DNA of 64,000 nucleotides from Candidatus Nomurabacteria bacterium. Its GTDB lineage: Bacteria; Patescibacteriota; Minisyncoccia; Phycocordibacterales; SBAW01. The translations under genes and the position numbers were made by a program. This document shows positions 1,323 to 51,241 of the stretch, piece by piece. The notes beneath the pieces are model-generated. The model did not search any database and had not been told where the DNA came from. It worked only from the letters and a program-made list of their open reading frames with translations. The stretch is from the NCBI GenBank assembly GCA_943356495.1, contig CALRFF010000001.1, forward strand, positions 24,957 to 88,956. Reading direction: 5' to 3'. How positions within the stretch are numbered: position 1 is the stretch's first letter; every line of letters begins with the position of its first letter.

Positions 1323-2831
1323 ATGCAGCGCTACTTAGGCCGTATACGTGTATTGACGGCTGTATGTGTTTTGGTGGTACTGGTAATAGTCGGCAGGCTC
1401 TATTATCTGCAAGTCATGCGGGGCGACAGTTATGCCCGCAAAGCGGACGCGCAATTTACGGTGTCGCACGACCCGCTGCTCGACCGCGGGACCATTTACT
1501 TTACCGACAAAGACGGCGTGCAAGTAACCGCGGCGACTTTGCACCCCGTTGCTTCCTCGACCAACCATCAACGCTACTACCCCGGCGGCTCTTTGGCGGC
1601 GCAGGAAATCGGTTTTGTCGCATACAACAACGACCACATACAAAAAGGCCGCTACGGGTTGGAGCGCTATTATGACGAGACGCTAAGCCGAACCGACAGC
1701 TACTCAAACTTTTTTGTACAACTCTTCGGCAGTGTAAAAACAGCCATCGAGGGAGGGCAAGGGCAGGGCGATGTAATTACGACCATCGAGCCGTCGGTGC
1801 AGGCCGAACTTGAGCGCACACTGGCCGACTACGCCGCCAGCTGGCACCCCACACTTGGCGGCGGCATTGTGATGGATCCAAAAACCGGCGAGGTGGTGGC
1901 TATGGCGGTGTATCCGACCTTTGACCTTAACTCTTTTAATACGCAGACCGACCCGTTGATATACGCCAATCCGATGGTGCAAAACGTGTACGAGATGGGC
2001 TCGATTATTAAGCCGCTTACGCTGGCGGCGGGGCTCGACTCCGGCGCCATAACCGAAAAGACAACCTACAACGACACCGGCTGTATCGAGGTTGATACTA
2101 AAAAAATATGTAACTTCGACGGCAAGGCGCGCGGCGTTATACCGGTGCAGGAAATTTTAAACCAGTCGCTTAACGTCGGTGCTTCGTTTGTGGCAACTAA
2201 AATGGGGCAGGCAACCCAACGGGAATACTTTTTAAATCGTTACAAACTAGGGGAAGAGACGGGTACCGACCTGCCTGCCGAAGGGCATGGGCTTATGTCG
2301 CCGCTTAAAACAAACCGGCAGGTCGAGTTTAACAGCGCGTCCTATGGGCAGGCTATCGCCATGACGCCTATTGCGACCGTGCGCGCCTTGGCGACGCTTG
2401 CCAACGGTGGCTTGCTGGTGACTCCGCATTTGGCAAAAGCGGTAACCTACGACAGCGGCGTTACGCGCGCGCTTGGCTGGGGCGAGCCGGTGCCGGTGCT
2501 TAAGCCCGAGACATCCACTACTATTAGCCGCATGCTTACCACGGTGGTGGACACGTCGCTGGTGCACGGCGACACTAAGCTCGAGCACTATAGCGTTGCA
2601 GCAAAAACAGGCACCGCGCAAATTGCCAACCCTGCAGGCGGCGGCTATTATGCCGACCGGTATCTGCATAGCTTTTTCGGATACTTTCCTTCGTACGATG
2701 CTAAGTTTGTGGTATTTCTTTTTGCGGTCGAGCCGCAAGGGGCATCGTTTGCCAGCCAGACATGGGCATCGCCGTTCCACGCGCTGACCAAGTTCCTGAT
2801 AAACTACTATCAAATCCCGCCCGACCGCTAA
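1323..2831 (+). CDS. ftsI: penicillin-binding protein 2/3 (FtsI-type peptidoglycan D,D-transpeptidase)
   Basis: N-terminal TM segment and PBP dimerisation region. Transpeptidase motifs present: SxxK (GSIIKP), SxN and KTGT (AAKTGTA). Confidence 0.85.
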   Translation: MQRYLGRIRVLTAVCVLVVLVIVGRLYYLQVMRGDSYARKADAQFTVSHDPLLDRGTIYFTDKDGVQVTAATLHPVASSTNHQRYYPGGSLAAQEIGFVAYNNDHIQKGRYGLERYYDETLSRTDSYSNFFVQLFGSVKTAIEGGQGQGDVITTIEPSVQAELERTLADYAASWHPTLGGGIVMDPKTGEVVAMAVYPTFDLNSFNTQTDPLIYANPMVQNVYEMGSIIKPLTLAAGLDSGAITEKTTYNDTGCIEVDTKKICNFDGKARGVIPVQEILNQSLNVGASFVATKMGQATQREYFLNRYKLGEETGTDLPAEGHGLMSPLKTNRQVEFNSASYGQAIAMTPIATVRALATLANGGLLVTPHLAKAVTYDSGVTRALGWGEPVPVLKPETSTTISRMLTTVVDTSLVHGDTKLEHYSVAAKTGTAQIANPAGGGYYADRYLHSFFGYFPSYDAKFVVFLFAVEPQGASFASQTWASPFHALTKFLINYYQIPPDR

Positions 2832-2832
2832 C

Positions 2833-4140
2833 ATGCGCACTCTTTTTAAAAAATGTATTGTCGCCGTTATTACGTGGGAGGCGCGTCTGGTCCTGCGCAA
2901 ATACAAGCCCAAGATTATTGCGATTACCGGGAGTGTGGGCAAAACATCGACCAAAGACGCTATCTACGCAGCCTTGCGCAAAAGCGAGCATGTCCGCAAG
3001 TCGGAAAAGAGTTTTAACAGCGAGGTAGGTATCCCGCTTACTATACTGGGCGCGCCCAACGGTTGGAGCAACCCTTTCCGCTGGCTGGTAACTATAGTTG
3101 ACGGTTTGTCGTTGGTATTATTTACCACCCGGTATCCGGAGTGGTTGGTGCTCGAGGTGGGCGCCGACCGCCCCGGCGACATACGCTCGCTCAGCGGCTG
3201 GTTGCGCGTGCAGGTAGCGGTGATTACGCGGTTGCCGGAGCTGCCGGTGCATGTAGAGTTTTTTGACTCGCCCGAAGCCGTGATAGAGGAAAAAGCTTCG
3301 CTTATAAACGCATTGGTGCGCGGCGGCACGCTTATACTTTTTGGCGACGATCCGCGCACGCGTGCGCTCGAGCGTCGCTTGCCGGAGACCGGCGGCACAC
3401 TTATAACATTTGGTTTTGACGAGGATAACGATGTCCGCGGTGTCGAGGTGCAAGCCTTGCGCGACGAAGAAGGCGGCTGGCCCGTGGGCATGGCCGCAAC
3501 TATTACCGCCGGAGAAAGCCGCGCGCATCTTACTGTCCGCGGCGCGCTCGGTGCGCATGCCTTTTTGCCCGCACTCGGCGCGGCGGCGGTTGCGGGCGCG
3601 CTTGGTAAAGACATACACGATGTAGCCGCCGCATTGGCAGGGTATGAGCCGCCCGCGGGTCGTATGCGCTTGCTGCAGGGTATTAAAGACACGCTGGTTA
3701 TAGACGACACCTACAACGCCAGCCCCGCGGCCACCTCGGCCGCGCTCGAGGCGCTGGCGCTGGCACACCGGCCGCGTGGGCGTGAGGTGGCGGCGCTCGG
3801 CGACATGCTTGAGCTAGGGCGCACCTCGGTGCAAGAGCATAAAAAGTTAGGGGCCCTGTGCGCTAAAACCTGTAAACTGCTTATTACCGTGGGCTTTCGC
3901 GCCCGCGACATTGCGCAGGGCGCGCTCGATGCCGGCATGGACGAAAGCAAGATATTTCAATACGAAGACTCCGCGGTAGCGGGCAGGGAACTACAAAACA
4001 TGCTCAAGGCCGGCGACGTTGTGCTATGCAAAGGCTCACAAAGTATACGCATGGAGCGCGTGGTAGAGGAACTAATGGCCGAGCCCAACCGCGCGGCAGA
4101 GTTGTTGGTGCGGCAGGACGCAGAGTGGAAAAAACGCTGA
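2833..4140 (+). CDS. murF: UDP-N-acetylmuramoyl-tripeptide--D-alanyl-D-alanine ligase
   Basis: Mur ligase P-loop ITGSVGKTSTKD plus central and C-terminal Mur ligase domains. Canonical position after ftsI. Confidence 0.85.
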   Translation: MRTLFKKCIVAVITWEARLVLRKYKPKIIAITGSVGKTSTKDAIYAALRKSEHVRKSEKSFNSEVGIPLTILGAPNGWSNPFRWLVTIVDGLSLVLFTTRYPEWLVLEVGADRPGDIRSLSGWLRVQVAVITRLPELPVHVEFFDSPEAVIEEKASLINALVRGGTLILFGDDPRTRALERRLPETGGTLITFGFDEDNDVRGVEVQALRDEEGGWPVGMAATITAGESRAHLTVRGALGAHAFLPALGAAAVAGALGKDIHDVAAALAGYEPPAGRMRLLQGIKDTLVIDDTYNASPAATSAALEALALAHRPRGREVAALGDMLELGRTSVQEHKKLGALCAKTCKLLITVGFRARDIAQGALDAGMDESKIFQYEDSAVAGRELQNMLKAGDVVLCKGSQSIRMERVVEELMAEPNRAAELLVRQDAEWKKR

Positions 4141-11840: not shown

Positions 11841-13067
11841 ATGAAAAGGCAGCGGTGGACAGCGGCGGGGAGTCTTGTCGCTTTGGCTATTGCGTTTAGC
11901 GTGGGGCTCTACACCGGCGTCTCCGAGTGGGGCGGCAGCCGCGCCGCGGCACAAAGCGACTTGTTTGGGACCGGAACCCAGCCGGGCAGCATCAACATGG
12001 GCCAGTTTTGGCAGGCGTGGAACGTGCTTGACGAGCATTTTGTGCAGGTGCACGCATCGACCACGCTCCCCACCGATGAAGAAAAAATATACGGGGCGAT
12101 AGCGGGGCTTACCGCCAGCTACGGCGACCCGTACACGGTCTTTTTGCCGCCGGAAGACGCGCAGATATTTAACGACGACATCAGCGGCTCGTTCGGCGGC
12201 GTGGGCATGGACTTGGCTCAAAAAGAAGGCCGCGTAACCGTGGTGGCTCCGCTTAAGGGCTCGCCGGCCGAGGCCGCCGGTGTCCGCAGCGGCGACGTGG
12301 TGTTGGCGGTTAACGGCACCTCGACCGAGAGCATGTCGGTTGACCAAGCGGTCAAGATAATCCGCGGACCCAAAGGCACGACCGTTGCGCTTACTATGTC
12401 GCGCGCGGGGGTAGCCCAGCCGTTTGTGGTAAAGATAGTGCGCGACACTATTACTATCCCCGTTATCAACGCGTACGCGCGCGGCGACGGCGTGTTTGTT
12501 ATCGAGCTGTACAGCTTTTCGCAAAACTCGGCAGAGCTGTTTCGTGGCGCGTTGCGGCAGTTTTTCCTGTCGGGCCAGACTAAAATGATTCTCGACCTGC
12601 GCGGCAACCCCGGCGGCTACTTGGACGCGGCGGTGGACATGGCCAGCTACTTTTTGCCGGTGGGCGACGTGGTGGTAACCGAGGACTACAAAGGCAAGGC
12701 GTCTAATATCGCGCACCGCTCGCTCGGCTACAACGTGTTTGCAAACAAACAACTGAGTATGGCGATATTGGTTGACCAAGGTTCGGCCTCTGCTTCAGAA
12801 ATTTTGGCGGGCGCCCTGCAGCAGCACGGTGTAGGTAAGTTGGTGGGCCAGCGCACGTTCGGCAAAGGCTCGGTACAGCAGCTGGTAGACCTAGGGAACG
12901 GGGCCGAGCTTAAAATTACGGTCGCGCGCTGGCTAACCCCTAACGGGACTTCCATTAGCGACGGCGGGCTTACCCCTGACTTTACGGCAACCACGACCGC
13001 CAAAGACGTTGCTGCGGGCAAAGACCCGCAAAAAGACGCCGCCCTTTCGTGGCTCGCAACGCAGTAG
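11841..13067 (+). CDS. ctpA: carboxyl-terminal processing protease (S41 family) with PDZ domain
   Basis: N-terminal anchor or signal, PDZ domain (GSPAEAAGVRSGDVVLAVNG), and S41 catalytic region with GG motif and Ser/Lys dyad region. Confidence 0.8.
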   Translation: MKRQRWTAAGSLVALAIAFSVGLYTGVSEWGGSRAAAQSDLFGTGTQPGSINMGQFWQAWNVLDEHFVQVHASTTLPTDEEKIYGAIAGLTASYGDPYTVFLPPEDAQIFNDDISGSFGGVGMDLAQKEGRVTVVAPLKGSPAEAAGVRSGDVVLAVNGTSTESMSVDQAVKIIRGPKGTTVALTMSRAGVAQPFVVKIVRDTITIPVINAYARGDGVFVIELYSFSQNSAELFRGALRQFFLSGQTKMILDLRGNPGGYLDAAVDMASYFLPVGDVVVTEDYKGKASNIAHRSLGYNVFANKQLSMAILVDQGSASASEILAGALQQHGVGKLVGQRTFGKGSVQQLVDLGNGAELKITVARWLTPNGTSISDGGLTPDFTATTTAKDVAAGKDPQKDAALSWLATQ

Positions 13068-13089: not shown

Positions 13090-13536
13090 ATGAAAGTCAT
13101 TTTGCTTAAAGACGTGCGCGGGGTGGGCTTGCATGGCACTATCCAGAATGTGGCCGACGGCTATGCGGTTAACCGTCTTTTCCCCGCCAAGCTTGCCGTA
13201 GCCGCTACCGAGGAAAAAATTAAAGAAATAGAGGCGCAGGTAGCCGCCCGTGCGGCGCAGGTAGCCAAAGAGGAAGAGCAGTTGGACAATAAAGTAGCCG
13301 CCCTGCGCGGCAAACGCGTGAGCTTGGCGGCTCGCGCCACCGACAAAGGTGGTTTGTTTAAAGCGGTGTCTGTAACCGACATTGCCAAAGCTATCCGTGC
13401 AGAGCACTCGCTCGAAATTGCCGAGGCCAACATACACCTACCTGAACATATAAAAACAGTGGGGGAGCACATGGTGTTGGTGCGCGGTAAAAACCAAAAG
13501 GCCGAACTTGCCGTGGCGGTTACGCCGGCCCTGTAG
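13090..13536 (+). CDS. rplI: 50S ribosomal protein L9
   Basis: MKVILLKDVRGVGLHGTIQNVADGYAVNRLFP is the canonical L9 N-domain. Start taken at the internal ATG of the track ORF. Confidence 0.85.
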   Translation: MKVILLKDVRGVGLHGTIQNVADGYAVNRLFPAKLAVAATEEKIKEIEAQVAARAAQVAKEEEQLDNKVAALRGKRVSLAARATDKGGLFKAVSVTDIAKAIRAEHSLEIAEANIHLPEHIKTVGEHMVLVRGKNQKAELAVAVTPAL

Positions 13537-13576
13537 GCCTCATGCAATCTTTAGGCTGTTTTGGTATTGTGCCTGT

Positions 13577-13888
13577 ATGAAAAAAGTCCTAGCCGTTGCT
13601 ACCTTTGCCGCACTGCTGGCGCCCTCGTTGGTGTTTGCGTCGTACCTGCCGTACAACTCGAGTTACCAAGGTTCGTACCTGCCGTATCAGCAGCAATACT
13701 CGGCGTACCAACCGGCATCGTACTACTACCCGTCATACTCATACTCCAACTACTCTTACCAAAACCAATACTCCTACCCAAGCTACTCATACCCTTCGTA
13801 CAATCAATACTCCTACGGCCCGAGCGTCCGCGTAAACGTAAACGCCACCCCGTATTGGGGCGGCGGATGGGGAGGAGGCTGGTGGTAG
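13577..13888 (+). CDS. secreted Tyr/Ser/Pro/Gln-rich low-complexity protein with Gly-Trp C-terminal tail
   Basis: Signal peptide MKKVLAVATFAALLAPSLVFA, followed by SYLPY / YSYPSYS-type repeats with 29% Tyr, ending GGGWGGGWW. Confidence 0.55.
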   Translation: MKKVLAVATFAALLAPSLVFASYLPYNSSYQGSYLPYQQQYSAYQPASYYYPSYSYSNYSYQNQYSYPSYSYPSYNQYSYGPSVRVNVNATPYWGGGWGGGWW

Positions 13889-13890
13889 TG

Positions 13891-14169
13891 TTACTTCACC
13901 AAAACGTCTACTTTGGAGCGCTTGACGACGTGGCCGTCGAAGTTGGTTTTGCGCACAAGTTTAAAGGAAACTACACCGCCCTTAACCGCATAGATAGTAT
14001 GGTCTTTGCCAAGCTTTACGTTGGCCCCCGGCATCATTTTGGTACCGCGCTGGCGCACGATAATGGCGCCCGGCTTGGCAAATTGGCCGGCAAAGAGCTT
14101 AACGCCAAGGTACTTAGCGTTAGAATCGGTTAGGTTTTTAGCTGTCCCGCCTGCTTTCTTTGATGCCAT
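13891..14169 (-). CDS. rpmA: 50S ribosomal protein L27
   Basis: [29 protein letters not shown]...IVRQRGTK is canonical L27. Confidence 0.9.
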
Positions 14170-14190
14170 ATATTTAGTATTGTGTATGAG

Positions 14191-14346
14191 ATGATACCAA
14201 AAGAGTGGCTTACTGGCAAGCACTGGGAGCCTTTGGTGGTACCGGCTATTGTTATCCTGGTAGGACTCTCTGCTTTTGCGCTTGGGCGGCTCTCGGCGGT
14301 AGCGGGGCAGGGCGCAGGGGGGCTATTTAACACCGAACAACTATGA
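14191..14346 (+). CDS. possible 51-aa membrane protein translationally coupled (ATGA overlap) to the next gene
   Basis: Hydrophobic ORF below the 60-aa track cutoff. Its TGA stop overlaps the ATG at 14343. Weak RBS. Confidence 0.3.
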
Positions 14347-15525: not shown

Positions 15526-15957
15526 ATGCCTTTCGCAACTGGTTTCGCTCTTGCGGTCTCTCTGGCACTAAGCAGCGCTTCGGCGCCGCTCCAGACGCAG
15601 GGTCTGATGCCGGCCGCGCAGTCGCCCAAGGAGTTCGTTGAAAGTTACTTCGCTGACGTTCCGATTATGATTAAGGTCGCGCATTGCGAGTCGCGTTTTC
15701 GCCAGTACGGTACCGACGGTTCGGTATTTCGCGGCATAGTCAACGACCTCGACGTCGGTATTATGCAGGTTAACGAGTATTACCACTCGTCTACCGCAGA
15801 AAAGCTCGGTCTCGACCTCTACACGATACAAGGCAACGTGGCATACGCCCGCTACTTGTACGAAAAGCAAGGCACCGCCCCGTGGGTATCCTCGGAGCCG
15901 TGCTGGGGTAAATACAAAACTAAACCCTCGGCTATCGTAGCCACGGTTAAGAAATAA
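15526..15957 (+). CDS. secreted lytic transglycosylase-like (SLT/GH23-type) domain protein
   Basis: Signal peptide, then AHCESRFRQY...VGIMQVNE resembling the catalytic Glu-Ser and GLMQ motifs of SLT domains. Confidence 0.55.
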   Translation: MPFATGFALAVSLALSSASAPLQTQGLMPAAQSPKEFVESYFADVPIMIKVAHCESRFRQYGTDGSVFRGIVNDLDVGIMQVNEYYHSSTAEKLGLDLYTIQGNVAYARYLYEKQGTAPWVSSEPCWGKYKTKPSAIVATVKK

Positions 15958-19612: not shown

Positions 19613-20875
19613 CTATTTAGGCAAATATTGGAGCGGGTTAAGGTACGCGTTGACCGGCACAATGGGGATCATGGTCGAGCTGCCGCTGGCGCAGGAGTAC
19701 TGCTTAAACGATATAGCGGCCGCCGCGTATACGGTCATATGCAAATGCGGGCCGGTGGCGTAACCGGTGTTGCCGGAAAGGCCTATAACTTGGCCTGTAG
19801 ATACGGTCGTACCCTTGGTGACGTTGATAGTCGAAAGGTGGGCATACAAGGTGGCAAGACCGTTGGCATGCTTGATAAGCACCCATTTGCCGTATTGGCA
19901 GTTTTTGACCGCGCCTTGGTTAACCTCGAGTACCGTGCCGGCGAGCGATGCACGCACCGGCGTGCCTATAGATGCCCGAAAGTCGATGCCGTTGTGCGTG
20001 CCCGAGGTATACAGGCGGCCCGACACCGAGGTTTTGCCGAACTGTTGCGTAAGCACCACGTTGTCGAGCGGCCAACGCAGCACCCCTCCCCCGGCCGTCG
20101 GTATGCCGGATATATCGGCCGTGCCCAACTGCGATGCAAGGGTAAAGAGTATGTCTTCGAAGCGCCGCTGCTCGGCCTGCTTTTGCGCGATAAGCGCTTG
20201 GTAGGCGCTTTCTTTGTTTTGCGTTTCGGACAAAAGGTCGGCCTGCGACTGGCGGTTGATAGCAAGCGACTGCTTTTGCTGGTTAAGCTGTTTTTGTAGT
20301 GTTGCCAGTTGGGTGCGTGCCTGCGTGGCGGTATTTTTATTTGTTTGCAGGGTGGACTTTAATCGCGATAGGTCCTGTATCCGGTTGCCCAACTCGTCAC
20401 GGAGCGACCCAAGTGCTATAGCCTCATCAAAAAAGTCGGACAAGGTTCTCCCCGCAAGCAGTGACGCCGCCACCGAGGCTTCGTCGTGCTCGGAGAGGTT
20501 GCGCAACGATGCGGCAACCTCGCTACGGGTGGTGTCTATGGTGTTAGAGGTGGTGGCAATACCGCCGCTTAAACGCAGTATTTCTTTGTCTTTTTGCGTA
20601 ATCTGCGCGGTGGTGAGCGTAATACTTTTAGTGAGCTTTTGGATGTTGAGGTCTATCGTCTTGACCGTCGACTGCAGGGTCTGCTTTTGCGAAGAGACGT
20701 TGTTAAGTTGTATCTGCAGCTGGTCTATCTCGTTTTTGAGCGCATTAATTTGCTGGGCGGTGGCATCGGCCTGCGCCTGCAACTCTTGGGTAGCAGAGTC
20801 GGTATCGGTCGTGGTAGCGGTCTGCGCGTGTGCAACAGGAGTAAGCAGCAGGAGTATCGCTAAGAGGAAGCCCAT
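19613..20875 (-). CDS. M23 family peptidase with N-terminal coiled-coil (EnvC-like murein hydrolase/activator)
   Basis: Signal peptide, long Q/L-rich coiled-coil, and a C-terminal LytM/M23 domain (HNGIDF...HLHMTVY). Start taken at MGFLLAILLLL. Confidence 0.8.
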   Translation of the reverse strand: MGFLLAILLLLTPVAHAQTATTTDTDSATQELQAQADATAQQINALKNEIDQLQIQLNNVSSQKQTLQSTVKTIDLNIQKLTKSITLTTAQITQKDKEILRLSGGIATTSNTIDTTRSEVAASLRNLSEHDEASVAASLLAGRTLSDFFDEAIALGSLRDELGNRIQDLSRLKSTLQTNKNTATQARTQLATLQKQLNQQKQSLAINRQSQADLLSETQNKESAYQALIAQKQAEQRRFEDILFTLASQLGTADISGIPTAGGGVLRWPLDNVVLTQQFGKTSVSGRLYTSGTHNGIDFRASIGTPVRASLAGTVLEVNQGAVKNCQYGKWVLIKHANGLATLYAHLSTINVTKGTTVSTGQVIGLSGNTGYATGPHLHMTVYAAAAISFKQYSCASGSSTMIPIVPVNAYLNPLQYLPK

Positions 20876-20885
20876 TTGTTTTATT

Positions 20886-22181
20886 TTAAAGGCTTTGGGC
20901 CGCGCGGGCAATGCGCGCCAGCGCCTCGTCTTTGCCGACAAGGGTAAGGATAGTGAAGGGGTCTGGCGAGCGCTCGCGCCCTGAAAGCGCGGTGCGCAAG
21001 GGCCACAAGACGTCTCCCCTGCCTTCGGCGGTCGCGTAGGGCCATATAAGGTCTTTGTAGCCTTGGGAGGTGAGTCCTTCATTGGGTGTATCGTGCAAAA
21101 GCTCCGCAAGTGCGTTCAGGTGCTTTGACGCTACCGCGGGGGCTATCTTTCCTTTGTTGGTGAGGAGCGCAGGTTCGCAAGAGACACCCTGTAAAAAACC
21201 GAACTCCGTGTCCAGCATGTCGGCGGCTTCCTGCAGTGTTGCCGCGCGCTCTTTAAGCAGCGGCACTATGCGCGGGTCGATATCTTTTTTAGCAAAATCG
21301 CGCACGCGCGAGGCGTACGCATCATCGGTCATGCGCTTTAGATGCTCATGGTTAAACCAACGCAGCTTCTCTTCGTCAAAAATACCGGCGCCTTTTTGTA
21401 TGCGCTCCAGCGTAAACTCCCCTACCAGCTCGTCCATAGTAAAGAGTTCTTTGTTGCCCTCCGGGTGCCAGCCAAGCAAGGCCAAATAGTTAATCATCGC
21501 TTCGGCCACGTAGCCTTCGTTGCGGTACTGCGTAAGCGCTTTGGCGCCGCGGCGTTTAGACAGTTTGGCGCGGTCGGGGCCAAGTACCAACGGCAAGTGC
21601 GCGTAGATAGGCGTCTCGTAGCCGAGCGCCTGTTGTATCAGTATTTGCCGCGGCGTGTTGGAAATATGGTCTTCGCCGCGTATGACATGGGTTACTCCTT
21701 CGTCATAGTCGTCGACCACTACCGCAAAATGGAAGACCGGCTCGTCGAGCGAGCGGGCGATAACAAAGTCGCCCAAGTCGCTGGTGTTAAAGGTTATTTC
21801 CCCGCGTATCGCATCGGTAAAGGTAATAGTAGTCTTCGGGTTCTTAAACCGAATCACTTCTTTTCTTTCACCCTCGGTTTCTTGCGATACAAATGCTGCG
21901 CCGCTTTTGATAAGTTGCTCGAGCTGCTCGCGGTGGCGCACGGCGTTGCCGCTCTGGCGGTAGTTCCGCTCGGGCAGGAGCGCCAGCCACGACAAAGTTT
22001 CGTGGATATTGTCCTCGTACTCGGGTTTGGAGCGCTCTTTGTCGGTGTCCTCGATGCGTACGATAAACTCTCCCTGCATTTTGCGGGCAAACAGGTAGGC
22101 AAACACCGCGGTGCGGTAGTTGCCGCCGTGGAGGAGGCCGGTGGGGCTTGGGGCAAATCGGGTAACTACTTTTTGTGGCAT
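20886..22181 (-). CDS. gltX: glutamate--tRNA ligase
   Basis: Class I aaRS with APSPTGLLHGGN (HIGH region) and KLSKRRG (KMSKS). Confidence 0.9.
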   Translation of the reverse strand: MPQKVVTRFAPSPTGLLHGGNYRTAVFAYLFARKMQGEFIVRIEDTDKERSKPEYEDNIHETLSWLALLPERNYRQSGNAVRHREQLEQLIKSGAAFVSQETEGERKEVIRFKNPKTTITFTDAIRGEITFNTSDLGDFVIARSLDEPVFHFAVVVDDYDEGVTHVIRGEDHISNTPRQILIQQALGYETPIYAHLPLVLGPDRAKLSKRRGAKALTQYRNEGYVAEAMINYLALLGWHPEGNKELFTMDELVGEFTLERIQKGAGIFDEEKLRWFNHEHLKRMTDDAYASRVRDFAKKDIDPRIVPLLKERAATLQEAADMLDTEFGFLQGVSCEPALLTNKGKIAPAVASKHLNALAELLHDTPNEGLTSQGYKDLIWPYATAEGRGDVLWPLRTALSGRERSPDPFTILTLVGKDEALARIARAAQSL

Positions 22182-22199
22182 GCAGGCAGTGTACGAAAA

Positions 22200-23327
22200 T
22201 TATGACTCGTGGGAAAGGGCGACGGCCAACAATGCCTCGGCTATCGTTTTGGCGGCATCCGCACGGGCAAAGGCGCGCGCCGCGTTGCCCATCGAGTGGC
22301 GGATTTGCTGGTTGCCAAGTATCCGGTTAACTTCCGACAGCAAGAGGCCGGGGGTCAGGTTTTGCTGTTCGATAACCGAGCAGGCGCCGGCGCGCGCGTA
22401 GGAAAAAGCGTTTTTACTTTGATGATCCTCGGCGGCGGTGGGTAGCGGCACAATAATACTCGGCAGGCCCCACGAAGCGATTTCAAAAATAGTCGAGCCT
22501 CCGCGCGAGATAATTAACTGCGCCGCGCCGGAAGCCATGCGCATTTCAAGGTCGTTAAGGTAGCCCATCGGTTTGTATCTGTCCGCGTGCAGGTTGTTGC
22601 CCATCGCTACCTTTGCGCGGCCGGTAACATCGTCTAGGTTGTCGGCACCGGTCTGGTGGATAATCTGATATTTTTCTACCAGTTGTGGCAAGGCAGAAAG
22701 GAGCCCGTCGTTTAAAGCTTGCGCGCCTTGTGAGCCGCCGGTGACAAAAATGACCGGGAGGTCCGGAGCAAATTTAAAAAACTCCAGCGCTCCGTCGCGC
22801 GCCGGCACCAGCGCCGCTTTGCGCACGGGGTTGCCGGTAAACGCCACTTTGTCGGCAGGAAAAAACTTTGCCGCCTCGGGGTACGAGATAGCCACCTTTT
22901 GCGCAAACTTCCCCGCCCAGCGGTTGACCTTGCCCGGCTCGGCATCGCTTTCGTGTATCACTACGGGTATGCGAAACAGTTTTGCCGCCAACAAGGTAGG
23001 AAAGGACGCATAACCCCCTTTGCCGAACACGACGTCCGGGTACAAAAAGAAGACGCGCAGCACCGACCGCGTTACGCCCCACGCGGTCTTAAAGTAGTCG
23101 AAGAAGTTGAGTATAGAAAAGTAGCGGCGCATCTTGCCCGCCGCGGTCGGCACAAAACGCACGTTGTTGGCAAACAACATTTCTTTGTCGTAGGGCTCGG
23201 GCGCGGCATAGATAAGCTCGGGCTCGACCAGCTTGCGCTCGCGGACAAGGTCGTTAACGGCCTCGGCCACCGCGATAATCGGGTAAAAGTGCCCGCCTGT
23301 CCCCCCGCCGGTAAAAAGAATTTTCAT
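22200..23327 (-). CDS. murG: UDP-GlcNAc:lipid I N-acetylglucosaminyltransferase MurG
   Basis: MKILFTGGGTGGHFYPIIAV is canonical MurG; GT28 family. Confidence 0.9.
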   Translation of the reverse strand: MKILFTGGGTGGHFYPIIAVAEAVNDLVRERKLVEPELIYAAPEPYDKEMLFANNVRFVPTAAGKMRRYFSILNFFDYFKTAWGVTRSVLRVFFLYPDVVFGKGGYASFPTLLAAKLFRIPVVIHESDAEPGKVNRWAGKFAQKVAISYPEAAKFFPADKVAFTGNPVRKAALVPARDGALEFFKFAPDLPVIFVTGGSQGAQALNDGLLSALPQLVEKYQIIHQTGADNLDDVTGRAKVAMGNNLHADRYKPMGYLNDLEMRMASGAAQLIISRGGSTIFEIASWGLPSIIVPLPTAAEDHQSKNAFSYARAGACSVIEQQNLTPGLLLSEVNRILGNQQIRHSMGNAARAFARADAAKTIAEALLAVALSHES

Positions 23328-23337
23328 ACAACAGTAC

Positions 23338-24435
23338 TTACGACTTCATTCTGCGCGATACGCTTAATAGTACCCCGACTTCCGCCAACGAGAGCGCCAG
23401 CGCGGTGCCGCCGTGCGATACAAAAATAAGCGGCACGCCGATAAGCGGCACCAACCCCAGCGCCGAAGCGATGTTAAAAAACGATTGCCCCACAATGATA
23501 GTCACGAGCCCCACTACGATAAGTCCGCCGAACGGGTCGCTTGCCCGCGCGGCGATGCGCAGGCCTAAGACGCAAAAAATAAGAAACAACGATACCAACA
23601 GCACCGACCCGACGAAGCCGAATTCTTCCCCCGCCACCGCAAAGATAGAGTCGCCTATAGGCTCGGGCAGGTAGGAAAACTTTTCGATACTTTGGCCAAA
23701 GCCGCGGCCGGTGAGTCCGCCGGAGCCGATGGCAATAAGCGACTGCTGTATCTGGTAACCGCTCCCTTGCGGGTCGGCCGAGTGGTCGAGATAGGTTACT
23801 AACCGCTCGCGCACGTGCGGGTAGGCATAGGCCGCAGCCCCGATAGCGCCCGCGGCAAGCAGTGCCAAGATAATTAAATGAGACAACCGCCCGCCCGCGG
23901 CAAACAGCATAACCGCAAGCGCTCCGCAGAGTATCAGTGCGCCCGCGGTGTTGGGCTGGGCCAGCAATATAGCCGCACCGCTGCCGCCGACCAGCAGCAT
24001 GGGTACTATGCCGCCCCGTATGGTCGGCACTTCTTTAAATTTAGTAGCGTATATCGCGGCCAAAAAAAGGACGCTCGCGAGTTTTAAAATTTCTTCGGGC
24101 TGAAAAGATACGGGGCCCAGCAATATCCACCGCGACGCGCCCTTAAGCGACAAACCTATGCCGGGGACAAAGGTAAGCAGCGTAAGCCCGAGCGCAAAAA
24201 AGAAAAAATAGGGCGTGTAAGGGCGCAGTAAACGGTAGTCTATACGCGAGAGTATCGCCATGGCGATACTACCGAGCACCAACCCCAGCAATAGCTGGGA
24301 CACTGCGACGTTGGTAAAGGTGGCTCCGTCGCGCGCCAAGAGTCCCAGTGCAGCCGAAGTAAAAATAAGTAGGCCGACAAACACCAGCGCCGATACCGCT
24401 ATTAAAAACGGTCCGTCTACCGAACCGCGCTTCAT
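23338..24435 (-). CDS. ftsW: FtsW/RodA (SEDS) family lipid II flippase/peptidoglycan glycosyltransferase
   Basis: Ten-TM SEDS pattern. Lies between mraY and murG. Start MKRGS overlaps the mraY stop (ATGA). Confidence 0.85.
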   Translation of the reverse strand: MKRGSVDGPFLIAVSALVFVGLLIFTSAALGLLARDGATFTNVAVSQLLLGLVLGSIAMAILSRIDYRLLRPYTPYFFFFALGLTLLTFVPGIGLSLKGASRWILLGPVSFQPEEILKLASVLFLAAIYATKFKEVPTIRGGIVPMLLVGGSGAAILLAQPNTAGALILCGALAVMLFAAGGRLSHLIILALLAAGAIGAAAYAYPHVRERLVTYLDHSADPQGSGYQIQQSLIAIGSGGLTGRGFGQSIEKFSYLPEPIGDSIFAVAGEEFGFVGSVLLVSLFLIFCVLGLRIAARASDPFGGLIVVGLVTIIVGQSFFNIASALGLVPLIGVPLIFVSHGGTALALSLAEVGVLLSVSRRMKS

Positions 24436-25484
24436 AAAAGCGCGACCGTCATGCCGATAATCGCCGATACGATGCCTACTATCCAGTAACGCATGACTAC
24501 TTTGTACGGAGGCCAACCTAACGCTTCGAAGTGATGGTGGAGCGGCGCGATGCGCAACAATTTACGCCCCAATATTTTTTTGCCGAAGATCTGCAGTATG
24601 TTAGAAAACACGGTGGCGACAAGCGGGAGCGCAATAATGGGTAATACGGTAATGCCCTTGCCGCTGCCGAGCGCATCGGTAAGAAAGGCCACTACGGTTA
24701 ACAGCAAGGTAAGCCCCATGGTCCCTGTCTCGGAGAGATAAAAGCGCGCGGGCGGCACGTTAAACCACAAAAAGGCCAATAGTCCCCCCGCCACTGCCGC
24801 GCACAGCGCAGCAATATCAAGCTGTTGCTGAAAGAAGGCTATCCCCGCATAGGCGGTAAACATGGTGGCAAAGAGTCCTCCCGCAAGGCCGTCGATGCCG
24901 TCGATGACTCCGCCGGCATATATAAAGAGTGCTACCAGTACAAAAAACGGTATAAACCACCACCCTAGCTCGATAGGACCCGGCGAAAACGGGAAGGAAA
25001 TAGACGATACCTCAAGCTTGTCAAAAAACCACCACGCACACAGCAGTGCCACCGTTGCTACAAGGCCTAATCGCGCGCGCAGACGCAGACCTTGCCGCCC
25101 CTGCACTTCGTACAGGTCGTCGAGTAACCCGACAAGGGCGCCTACCAACAGTGCGGCAAGCGGGACCCAGGTTTGGTTGCGGCTGATAAATGCCGTTGCT
25201 TCGAAGGACTCGGGGAATGCTATCCATAGCACCTGTAACAACAGTGCGGTCAGCCCGACGCTCCCCCACACCACGACGCCGCCGAAGCGCGGGGTGCCCG
25301 TCTCGCGCGTCTCGTGCAGGCGGTTAAACTCGCTGGCAGGCGTGCCGTCGAGCGCGAGTTTGCCGGCCTTCGGCTTCCATAGTTTGCGGGCGTACAAAAA
25401 GTGCGTCACAAACGGAGTCATACCCACCCCGATTAAAAAGGCGATTGTAGCGGGCAAAAATATTTCCATTACAGTTGCGGTCAT
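24432..25484 (-). CDS. mraY: phospho-N-acetylmuramoyl-pentapeptide transferase MraY
   Basis: Multi-TM protein with MraY conserved DD/ DxxD and HHH motifs (APLHHHFE). Confidence 0.9.
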   Translation of the reverse strand: MTATVMEIFLPATIAFLIGVGMTPFVTHFLYARKLWKPKAGKLALDGTPASEFNRLHETRETGTPRFGGVVVWGSVGLTALLLQVLWIAFPESFEATAFISRNQTWVPLAALLVGALVGLLDDLYEVQGRQGLRLRARLGLVATVALLCAWWFFDKLEVSSISFPFSPGPIELGWWFIPFFVLVALFIYAGGVIDGIDGLAGGLFATMFTAYAGIAFFQQQLDIAALCAAVAGGLLAFLWFNVPPARFYLSETGTMGLTLLLTVVAFLTDALGSGKGITVLPIIALPLVATVFSNILQIFGKKILGRKLLRIAPLHHHFEALGWPPYKVVMRYWIVGIVSAIIGMTVALL

Positions 25485-26371
25485 TGGGTTTGTTGTTGGG
25501 CAGTACGTGCGGACTCGATAATCGTGCGGACGTCCTCGAAGCGGCCCGCTTCGGTAGACTGTAACACCACTATTACCACCGGCCGGCCGATGTCTAAGTC
25601 GAATATAGCCGACAAGTTGCCGCCCGCCAAATCAGTGTAGCCGGTTTTCCCGCCTACAAAGCCGGGGATATCGAGGAGCGGCACCGTTGTTGCTTTAGCC
25701 GAAAGGGTGCGCTCCCCTGCGGTAATAGACACGGTCGGGTGGGTGCTGAGCTCAAAAAAAGTCGGATAGGATTTGTAAAAGGCGGCGGTCATACGCGCGA
25801 CATCAAAAGCCGAGCCGTACGCACCGGCGGTATCGTCGTTTACATCAAGACCGGTCGAGTTTAAAAAGTACGTTTTAATAAGCCCTAAGGACACGGCGGT
25901 GCGGTTCATTGCCGTTAGGTACTCGCCGCCCAGACTTGCCGCGGCGGCGGCCATCGCGTCGTTACTCGATGCCACTAATCCGAACTTCAACAGGTCTGCG
26001 AGCAACACACTGTCCCCCGCACGCAAGCCCCAGTCACCTTCGGGGGCAAGATCGCGCGCGGTAATGCGCACTACGGTGCCCGGCGGGCGCGCGGCCAATA
26101 CCGCCTGCGCCGACATTAGTTTAGTAAGCGACGCCAGCGGCAGTTGCGCCTGGCCGTTTTTTTGGTACAGCACCTCGCCGCTGGTTACGTCGTACAACAA
26201 GGCAGACTTAGCACGCAGTGTTGCCGGGTCGATAACAACTTCGATAGTCCGCGACTCTACCGCCGCGGCGCTTTGCGAATGTGCGGGCAGGTTAACCAGA
26301 GTCGCGCCTACACCAAAGGCAACCGCAATAAGTAACACCGAAAAGAGACCGGTAATAAAAGGGGGTATCAT
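25481..26371 (-). CDS. D-alanyl-D-alanine carboxypeptidase (S11, DacA-like)
   Basis: SxxK (ASLTKLM), SxN (SSN) and KTG (GKTGYT) motifs with an N-terminal anchor. Confidence 0.8.
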   Translation of the reverse strand: MIPPFITGLFSVLLIAVAFGVGATLVNLPAHSQSAAAVESRTIEVVIDPATLRAKSALLYDVTSGEVLYQKNGQAQLPLASLTKLMSAQAVLAARPPGTVVRITARDLAPEGDWGLRAGDSVLLADLLKFGLVASSNDAMAAAAASLGGEYLTAMNRTAVSLGLIKTYFLNSTGLDVNDDTAGAYGSAFDVARMTAAFYKSYPTFFELSTHPTVSITAGERTLSAKATTVPLLDIPGFVGGKTGYTDLAGGNLSAIFDLDIGRPVVIVVLQSTEAGRFEDVRTIIESARTAQQQTQ

Positions 26372-50566: not shown

Positions 50567-51241
50567 TTAGTTGGCCGTAAAGGTTACCCACATAGCCTCC
50601 CCGCCTTCGGTCAATACGGCATCAGCCGCAAGAGAGAATTTGCGGTCGCCGTTGTCCTGATGTTTGGTGACAAAGTACGTCTGCCCCGCAACGGTACCGC
50701 GCAATAGCTCTACCGTGCCCGCCTGTCGGTCGGGGAAAAAGAGTGCCGCACCAAGAACATTGCCGGGCTTGCCCGCACGGCTTTCATACACGACCACCCA
50801 AGTAGGTTCAGAGACAATCGCTTTGTTGATAGCAACCGAGGTCCCCGCTTTTTGCGGCGACATCAGGAGCAGGCTCGGGTCGGAGCCTTCAGCGGGAGTA
50901 CCGGTGCCGGTGTTTGCAGTGTTGGTCGACGTGGTCGAGTTAGTAGTTTGCGTAGTCTCAGTAGCAGCGGTGTCAGTCTTGTTCGAAAGCAATGCCGTGC
51001 CGCCCCACGCCAGCACTACGCCCGCGACAATGCCGCCGGCAAGCCAGCCGACTATTTTTGCACTGCTCATGCCGGAGTCGACAGACTCTGCGGGCATAAT
51101 GGGTTTGCCGAGCGGCGCTTCCGGCTTGTGGTGCGTCGGAGCCGGCGCAACCGGCGTCAAAGGCTTTTGCGGGGTCGACCAGCTAAGATTATTTTTATTG
51201 TGATTCGGATTCTGCTGTTGGCCCCCGTTCTGCGTGTTCAT
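50567..51241 (-). CDS. hypothetical membrane-anchored protein with Thr-rich linker and C-terminal beta-rich domain
   Basis: Q/N/P-rich N-tail, one TM helix and a T/S-rich low-complexity linker. No motifs recognised. Confidence 0.45.
   Translation of the reverse strand: MNTQNGGQQQNPNHNKNNLSWSTPQKPLTPVAPAPTHHKPEAPLGKPIMPAESVDSGMSSAKIVGWLAGGIVAGVVLAWGGTALLSNKTDTAATETTQTTNSTTSTNTANTGTGTPAEGSDPSLLLMSPQKAGTSVAINKAIVSEPTWVVVYESRAGKPGNVLGAALFFPDRQAGTVELLRGTVAGQTYFVTKHQDNGDRKFSLAADAVLTEGGEAMWVTFTAN

Follow-up and report, generated by a model that had tools for sequence, protein, structure and literature searches.

The sulfur globule proteins SgpA, SgpB and SgpC of purple sulfur bacteria are small, repetitive structural proteins that bear a signal peptide and are rich in Gly and Tyr, and dityrosine cross-links occur in spore coats. 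Low-complexity chains of the sticker-and-spacer kind, such as the [G/S]Y[G/S] domains of FUS, are expected to self-associate strongly and to be surface active. Here we report that a 64-kb stretch of contig CALRFF010000001.1 from Candidatus Nomurabacteria bacterium (the window, below) carries, between the genes for ribosomal proteins L9 (rplI) and L27 (rpmA), a gene for a small, Tyr-rich protein predicted to be secreted. As homology or a defining feature fails each time, we regard this protein as an analogue of the systems with which we compare it, and not as a member of any of them.

An earlier note on this DNA, made from its sequence, had likened the product to eukaryotic prion-like or FUS-type domains, and the likeness is fair in kind: the mature chain is uncharged, rich in Tyr, Ser, Gln, Asn and Gly, and, as a monomer, predicted to be disordered (AlphaFold2 with a four-sequence alignment gave a predicted local distance difference test score, pLDDT, of 48.7 and no secondary structure). 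It shares with FUS-type and yeast-prion-like domains this nearly charge-free composition, abundant SY dipeptides and a Tyr every few residues, but differs from them in being secreted, about 80 residues long and stand-alone, in its Gly/Trp tail and in its Pro content of 10%. In FUS, Tyr is about half as dense as the 27–34% found in the present family, and Gly is higher. No homology to FUS-type domains was found by profile search or among PDB sequences.

The sulfur globule proteins are matched in small size, export signal, Tyr-rich repeats and presumed structural coating role. They are Gly-rich, however, whereas the window protein is rich in Ser, Gln and Pro; there is no sign of sulfur globules in its host, an organism of the Parcubacteria type, and sequence searches found no similarity to SgpA, SgpB or SgpC. 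CotC and CotU of Bacillus are likewise small and very rich in Tyr, and they build insoluble assemblies of high mass (PMC7944565). They nevertheless show no homology to the window protein (Pfam, NCBIfam), and the host of the Tyr-rich gene does not form spores. Assembly of coat proteins takes place in the mother cell, and they lack a signal peptide; besides Tyr they contain much Lys and Asp.

The functional amyloids (curli CsgA, FapC, chaplins and TasA) are Sec-exported structural proteins that assemble themselves outside the cell, and the repeats of CsgA and FapC are rich in Gln, Asn, Gly and Ser, but the window protein is without imperfect strand-loop-strand repeats of 20–30 residues and its Pro content is high. 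No Pfam or NCBIfam model for curli, Fap, TasA or chaplins matched near threshold, the sole trace being the signal peptide of one divergent relative (L007, below) against FapC at E = 0.16, and there is no nucleator or amyloid secretion operon among the neighbours of the gene. Plant extensins and mussel foot proteins, in which Tyr serves adhesion and cross-linking, resemble it in their short Tyr-Pro-Ser repeats (YPSY, YxY), secretion and disorder; they differ in being eukaryotic. Extensins need SPPPP/hydroxyproline motifs and a peroxidase, while mussel proteins are Lys-rich and modified to 3,4-dihydroxyphenylalanine (DOPA); SPPP blocks are absent from the window protein. Lastly, GW modules and choline-binding repeats show a loose resemblance through Gly-Trp dipeptides and aromatic richness, and no Pfam model for GW or CW_binding_1 domains matched even at E ≤ 10.

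A conserved gene with a Tyr-rich product

The reading frame begins with ATG at 13577 and ends with TAG at 13886-13888, and its translation, MKKVLAVATFAALLAPSLVFASYLPYNSSYQGSYLPYQQQYSAYQPASYYYPSYSYSNYSYQNQYSYPSYSYPSYNQYSYGPSVRVNVNATPYWGGGWGGGWW, is identical to the protein sequence quoted in the earlier note. Cleavage after VFA would leave a mature part of 82 residues (81 counted from Tyr), made up of 22 Tyr (27%), 16 Ser (20%), 8 Gln and 6 Asn (Gln+Asn 17%), 8 Pro (10%), 8 Gly (10%), 4 Trp and a single charged residue, an Arg, among others. Given a background of 3% Tyr in the window's long open reading frames, the binomial probability of 22 or more Tyr among 81 residues is about 2e-15, and the density of Tyr reaches 16 per 40 residues, compared with at most 8 in any other open reading frame of the window. 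An aromatic residue stands at every third or fourth position of the mature protein, with Ser, Gln, Asn, Pro and Gly between. The earlier description of a Tyr/Ser/Gln/Pro low-complexity protein with a signal peptide applies to a genuine gene, and the Gly/Trp ending that it reported is present as GGGWGGGWW. The repeat was described less accurately: Tandem Repeats Finder gives a period of 15 nucleotides, or five residues (3.8 copies, 70% matches; Table 1), and the autocorrelation of aromatic residues peaks at lag 5, so that the unit is a pentad, roughly (Y/S)SYP(S), rather than heptad-like. The core contains three YPSY motifs, and YxY occurs six times.

Searches of 5.8 billion proteins with phmmer and hmmsearch returned P0001, which is identical to the window protein and comes from an independent contig of the ENA, and three relatives of 95–111 residues (P0002–P0004), whose genes stand in the same context as in the window, CysS-CorA-S41-rplI-gene-rpmA. 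Four protein clusters, including the window's own, were found in the searches of 5.8 billion and 1.84 billion proteins taken together, and an exhaustive profile search of the 1.84 billion cluster representatives returned a single cluster. As sequence searches serve composition-biased proteins badly, synteny was also used to find members: an L9 profile led to 80 metagenome loci, and the region after rplI was read in the closest 23 (L007–L029). Two divergent members, placed and oriented like the window gene, came to light in this way, one of 103 residues with 34% Tyr and the end SGWNGGWW (L007:3491-3802) and one of 131 residues with 29% Tyr, four Cys and the end NQNVNVNVNSGIYGGGGWW (L025:2298-2693). 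Their L9 proteins are 70% and 54% identical to that of the window, respectively, and the Tyr-rich proteins themselves are 43–45% identical to the window protein; neither sequence was found in a collection of 15 billion proteins. That such divergent members are missed by profile searches and recovered by synteny only is a caution for surveys of orphan genes in candidate phyla. The earlier note had proposed looking for similar Tyr-rich reading frames in related genomes and had made its claim depend on one being present at this position in close relatives; five further, distinct relatives, L007 and L025 included, have the gene in this slot, and the outcome therefore speaks for the gene.

All six members (the window protein, P0002, P0003, P0004, L007 and L025) are encoded in the arrangement rplI→gene←rpmA and start with ATG, and they have in common a predicted signal peptide, 27–34% Tyr, YPSY motifs and a C-terminal GGW...W, with 1–2 charged residues and 3–11 YxY motifs per protein. 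Given the low identity of L007 and L025 to the window protein, it is the composition, the YPSY and YxY motifs and the GGW...W end that are kept over longer distances.

In a codon alignment of the close members all insertions and deletions are in frame, and it is through such in-frame changes that the length of the core varies between homologues. Synonymous sites are near saturation (proportion of differing synonymous sites, pS, 0.51–0.88; of nonsynonymous sites, pN, 0.055–0.23), and the ratio of nonsynonymous to synonymous substitution rates (dN/dS) is 0.06–0.07 for the whole gene and 0.03–0.05 for the mature part in the two pairs with estimable dS. Between the window and L002, pN is 0.055 for the mature part, 0.139 for L9 and 0.102 for L27 of the same two genomes. 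The mature part evolves at most as fast as these two ribosomal proteins, and purifying selection on the Tyr-rich gene is as strong as on its ribosomal neighbours; a low-complexity protein can be held as tightly as a ribosomal protein. We are nearly certain that the gene and its secreted, Tyr-rich product are real.

A non-functional origin, by chance over a DNA repeat or as a by-product of the rpmA terminator region, would find some encouragement in the low complexity of the sequence with its 15-nucleotide repeat, in the absence of the gene from most relatives, in the lack of a clear Shine-Dalgarno sequence, and in a terminator-like hairpin of rpmA that overlaps the 3′ end. Such an artefact is effectively refuted by a dN/dS of 0.03–0.07, with dS saturated and the frame held through many insertions and deletions, and even at loci with as little as 54–70% identity in L9 the protein has kept its signal peptide, Tyr-rich core and GW end. 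GC content at third codon positions (0.70, against 0.6–0.7 in the window's real genes) and codon use are also gene-like, and we regard the probability of a spurious reading frame as negligible. The selection pattern fits the forward frame, so that the open reading frame on the opposite strand at 13599-13790, already called spurious in the earlier note, is rejected as a coding frame. Tyr is encoded by TAC in 20 of 22 cases, compared with 62% in bulk genes (Fisher P = 0.009), a bias that the homologues do not show. This codon use, and a conserved -10-like motif upstream of the gene, hint no more than weakly at the good expression that the earlier note considered probable.

The precursor is predicted to be exported through a Sec-type signal peptide, with no lipobox, transmembrane anchor or known sorting motif. 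Signal peptides were judged by heuristics, namely the charge of the n-region, the hydrophobicity maximum in an 11-residue Kyte-Doolittle window (KD(11)) and the residues at the cleavage site. In the window precursor the n-region is MKK, KD(11) peaks at 2.65, the cleavage site is VFA↓S and the signal peptide contains the sole hydrophobic segment. A basic n-region, a KD(11) of 2.3–2.85 and an AxA-type site (VFA↓S, ALA↓S, AFA↓S or AQA↓Y) lead to the same prediction for all six members, none of which has a hydrophobic segment after residue 30 (maximum KD(11) ≤ 0.34). Absolute conservation starts exactly at the predicted mature N-terminus. None of the six has a Cys lipobox, the window protein being devoid of Cys altogether, and Pfam LPAM_1 matches stayed below threshold (E 0.4–3.4); LPXTG/sortase, PEP-CTERM and GlyGly-CTERM signals are absent, with no match to an NCBIfam sorting domain, and none of the six precursors has a pilin-type leader. 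A lipoprotein, a sortase substrate and a pilin are ruled out, as the defining motifs are missing.

Many synonymous codon differences notwithstanding, the N-terminal block SYLPYNSSYQGSYL does not vary among the four close members; L007 and L025 have not kept it. The VxVN segment reads NQNVNVNVN in L025 and is missing in L007.

Table 1. Positions in the window of the Tyr-rich gene, its parts and the genes discussed in the text.
Feature	Position	Strand	Remarks
Complete coding sequence of the Tyr-rich secreted protein	13577..13888	+	103 codons + TAG; open reading frame and translation
Sec/SPase-I (type I signal peptidase)-type signal peptide, MKKVLAVATFAALLAPSLVFA	13577..13639	+	predicted cleavage VFA↓SY
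Mature N-terminal block, SYLPYNSSYQGSYL(P)	13640..13684	+	identical in four close members
Tyr/Ser/Gln/Asn/Pro low-complexity core	13685..13819	+	includes 15-nucleotide repeat array 13736-13794
Alternating beta-prone segment SVRVNVNAT	13820..13846	+	VxVN kept in close members
Gly/Trp C-terminal tail, PYWGGGWGGGWW	13847..13885	+	GGW and terminal Trp invariant in 6/6 members
Spacer from rplI to the gene, 40 nucleotides	13537..13576	+	TTTGGTAYYGT element, no clear Shine-Dalgarno; four-locus alignment
Terminator-like hairpin of rpmA	13843..13865	-	9 bp, 8 of them G-C, then UUUACGUUUA; scan and fold
S41/PDZ protease gene	11841-13067	+	two genes upstream of the Tyr-rich gene
rplI (L9)	13090-13536	+	
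rpmA (L27)	13891-14169	-	convergent
54-residue membrane open reading frame	14182-14346	+	divergent from rpmA
Gene for a 143-residue protein	15526-15957	+	
Gene for a 224-residue protein	50567-51241	-	

No meaningful match to the Tyr-rich protein was found in Pfam, NCBIfam or PHROGs at E up to 1–10 or among PDB sequences at E ≤ 10, and a homology search with the L025 protein as query returned nothing. Literature searches on Tyr-rich proteins in candidate phyla and on Adlerbacteria brought up nothing about Tyr-rich proteins encoded between rplI and rpmA, which form a new, unnamed family.

The nearest likeness outside this slot concerns a pair of secreted JGI 'hypothetical proteins' (P0005 and P0006; L087:2471-2776 and L088:807-1112) that also have about 100 residues, a signal peptide and a mature part made mostly of SYPSY-type repeats (GYSYPSY). 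They end in C-x4-HHRNGVV(W/Y)YTRxC, with no GW tail, and stand in a different genomic context. HMMER E-values are 2.6–8 and not significant. When alignments to the window protein were scored against composition-matched shuffles, P0005 gave z = 4.3 and P0006 z = 3.6, compared with z = 4.2 for the syntenic L025; as P0005 scores as well as L025, homology and convergence cannot be separated by sequence alone. Convergence is the more likely explanation, and SYPSY units may have been arrived at repeatedly as a structural solution.

A variable slot in a narrow clade

The gene is confined to a narrow Adlerbacteria-like clade of ultra-small bacteria within the Parcubacteria group of the Patescibacteria. 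The gene for P0002 comes from Candidatus Adlerbacteria bacterium T7_bin-136 (CAIWUA01) of that lineage, the L9, L27 and S41 proteins of the window are 77–88% identical to those of relatives, and the window's GC content of 54.8% is in line with that group. The T7_bin-136 assembly breaks inside the Tyr-rich gene, leaving its pieces at two contig ends (L005:3-248 and L006:6001-6165; CAIWUA010000021/26) that overlap in the repeat-rich coding region. Owing to this break at a low-complexity repeat, annotation pipelines will miss the gene there.

The placement between rplI and a convergent rpmA given in the earlier note agrees with the coordinates found here, the stop codon of rpmA lying 2 nucleotides from that of the Tyr-rich gene. 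In about 12 other relatives rplI abuts rpmA across a spacer of 20–60 nucleotides with no remnant of a gene. The slot is thus empty in most relatives, so that the gene is accessory and dispensable. A rough neighbour-joining tree of L9, L27 and S41 puts the gene-bearing lineages in three separate places, with L025 basal, and an ancestral gene with several clean losses is the simplest history.

Across this clade the slot between rplI and the convergent rpmA is a hotspot of variation in gene content. L001, L017, L018, L021 and L024 contrast in this respect with L008–L015, L020, L023 and L027–L029, and alternative cargo includes a KGG-repeat stress protein (L021:2607-2870), TypA/BipA (L024:3493-5322) and a 199-residue hypothetical protein on the minus strand in L017. 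In L001, which encodes P0004, an extra gene for 181 residues (L001:5370-5915) lies on the opposite strand between the Tyr-rich gene and rpmA.

A possible role in the cell envelope

We suggest, with a probability of roughly 0.45, that the product is a small, secreted, disordered and self-associating adhesive or structural matrix protein of the envelope. After export the polypeptide would stay in or on the cell envelope or in its immediate surroundings, where a Tyr 'sticker' every 3–4 residues, set among spacers of Ser, Gln, Asn, Pro and Gly, could make multivalent aromatic contacts. It might then assemble with itself into a layer resembling a gel, film or fibril, adhere to glycans, membranes, mineral surfaces or other cells, or do both, with the short VxVNVN strand perhaps nucleating beta-type association and the invariant Gly/Trp C-terminus possibly acting as an interfacial anchor. 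Trp, like Tyr, prefers the interfacial region of membranes and stacks against sugars.

In favour of such a protein, 27–34% Tyr and only 1–2 charged residues are held in all six members, and we count the SYPSY repeat shared by P0005 and P0006 as supporting context. Prion-like low-complexity regions of bacteria are reported to be enriched in proteins of the cell periphery, in a study that cites FUS-type [G/S]Y[G/S] domains as low-complexity sequences (PMC4606120), and the Tyr-rich CotC and CotU assemble into forms of high mass (PMC7944565). The window also contains a full set of peptidoglycan genes at 1323-4140 and 19613-26371 (penicillin-binding protein transpeptidase, Mur ligase, M23 peptidase, MurG, FtsW/RodA and DD-carboxypeptidase), from which it follows that the organism has a murein wall, and that a wall exists for the protein to bind.

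Several points weigh on the other side. Self-association is inferred from composition, searches found no homologue of known function, and 10% Pro argues against a long cross-beta core. The clean loss of the gene in most related lineages implies that the protein is not a core component of the envelope. No co-varying partner genes were found, the genes for the S41 protease, the 54-residue protein and RNase T flanking the slot with or without the Tyr-rich gene, and no oxidase, peroxidase or tyrosinase occurs among the genes scanned in the window. In addition, a block as invariant as SYLPYNSSYQGSYL would more usually be expected in an interface for specific binding or recognition than in a generic sticky polymer.

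This last point is the main tension for an adhesive or structural matrix protein, as positional conservation like that of a ribosomal protein points to a specific interface. The Tyr-rich product would then be a ligand or recognition peptide, in which the N-terminal block and the GGW...W end bind a defined partner and the Tyr-rich middle is a flexible spacer; a host-cell surface receptor, a wall polymer and the PDZ domain of the S41 C-terminal-processing protease are candidate partners. Conservation in close relatives that equals or exceeds that of the ribosomal proteins while synonymous change is saturated, the aromatic C-terminal residue invariant in 6/6 members, and the location of the S41/PDZ protease gene two genes upstream would all fit. 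Yet L007 and L025 have kept the composition and not the N-terminal block, and the S41 gene sits at the same place in relatives without the Tyr-rich gene, giving no signal of co-occurrence; we consider a ligand role unlikely. The S41/PDZ protease as a linked partner was rejected as evidence, the linkage of S41 to rplI being clade-wide and independent of the gene.

An enzyme-requiring sub-case of the structural reading would make the protein a substrate for covalent modification (oxidative Tyr-Tyr cross-linking as in extensins or coats, glycosylation of Tyr or Ser, or conversion to DOPA as in mussels) that ends in an insoluble, cross-linked layer. The dityrosine cross-linking raised in the earlier note belongs here, its sole support in the protein being the presence of YxY motifs. 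YxY is the motif that forms isodityrosine in extensins, and the proteins with 6–11 YxY motifs each, as well as the NSS and NAT sequons of the window protein, would suit such a fate, as would the high-mass species that Tyr-rich CotC and CotU form in spore coats (PMC7944565). However, neither in the window nor at the relatives' loci does the gene have a peroxidase, laccase, tyrosinase or glycosyltransferase gene linked to it, and we judge this route improbable.

A secreted membrane-active or antimicrobial peptide, similar to a bacteriocin and directed at competitors or hosts, whose Gly/Trp tail inserts into target membranes, would be in keeping with small size, predicted Sec export, a Gly/Trp-rich end, and the patchy, accessory occurrence of the gene at a site of variable content. 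Most known peptide bacteriocins carry a positive charge, whereas the mature peptide here is essentially uncharged (one Arg) and not amphipathic. An immunity gene and a dedicated ABC exporter are, moreover, missing next to the gene, the precursor lacks a double-glycine leader, genomes without the Tyr-rich gene have the same flanking genes, and Pfam, NCBIfam and PHROGs gave no match, all of which makes an antimicrobial function very improbable.

If the product is indeed an adhesive or structural matrix protein, it would be among the most Tyr-dense natural secreted polypeptides of bacteria, and a minimal (about 80 residues), charge-free model for extracellular self-assembly and adhesion driven by aromatic residues, which could be synthesized and would be of use for biomaterials. 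It would also offer a way into the question of how uncultivated cells of the Parcubacteria type construct or decorate their surfaces. A link to an epibiotic lifestyle, for which the earlier note considered such a protein relevant, is speculation for this Adlerbacteria-like lineage. The present importance is modest, as the family is very small and accessory and its function is read from sequence. A bolder extension, which we offer as speculation and do not expect to hold, is that charge-free SYPSY pentad polypeptides constitute an unrecognised 'tyrosine-sticker' class that would form condensates, gels or adhesive films on ultra-small Patescibacteria, would serve their attachment to host cells or minerals through aromatic residues and a Trp anchor, would have arisen independently in P0005 and P0006, and would be a parallel to FUS-type domains and to the adhesives of mussels and the extensins.

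Transcription signals and other genes of the window

In the spacer upstream of the gene, an extended -10-like element, TTTGGTAYYGT, ends 6–8 nucleotides before the ATG and is kept in the four close loci (the window, L001, L002 and L004), which also share the motifs CTTCAT and TTTRGGC. A simple sigma-70 scan called no promoter upstream of the Tyr-rich gene. The conserved -10-like motif suggests that the gene is transcribed from a promoter of its own and that its mRNA is leaderless, or nearly so.

The terminator-like hairpin of rpmA lies 26 nucleotides downstream of the rpmA stop codon, with a folding energy of -21.3 kcal/mol, and falls inside the codons for ATPYWGGG. L002 has an equivalent, GC-rich hairpin of 8 bp inside its TAPYMGGG codons (L002:4292-4360), and in both loci the hairpin is followed by UUUACGUUUAC on the rpmA strand and the stop codons of the two genes are 1–2 nucleotides apart. 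As the hairpin is formed within codons, the 3′ coding sequence may be under dual constraint. In L004 (866-937) and L007 (3780-3852), a canonical bidirectional terminator (A-run, GC stem and U-run) occupies a spacer of about 50 nucleotides between the stop codons, which adds to the evidence that the gene is real.

The other neighbours are the 54-residue membrane open reading frame, a DUF454-like open reading frame (below the Pfam cutoff) and RNase T. The 54-residue product has one predicted membrane helix and no Pfam match, and it is found throughout the clade at 42–83% identity (tblastn), independent of the presence of the Tyr-rich gene.

Two further proteins of the window may be mentioned. 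In the 224-residue protein, predicted to be another low-complexity protein of the envelope, the N-terminus is rich in Gln and Asn (MNTQNGGQQQNPNHNKNN) and a DUF7282 domain stands at the C-terminus; it also has one membrane helix and a linker rich in Thr, Ser and Asn. The 143-residue protein has a predicted signal peptide and no Pfam match, and its stretch CESRF...GIMQVNEYYH looks like the catalytic motif of a lytic transglycosylase (SLT).

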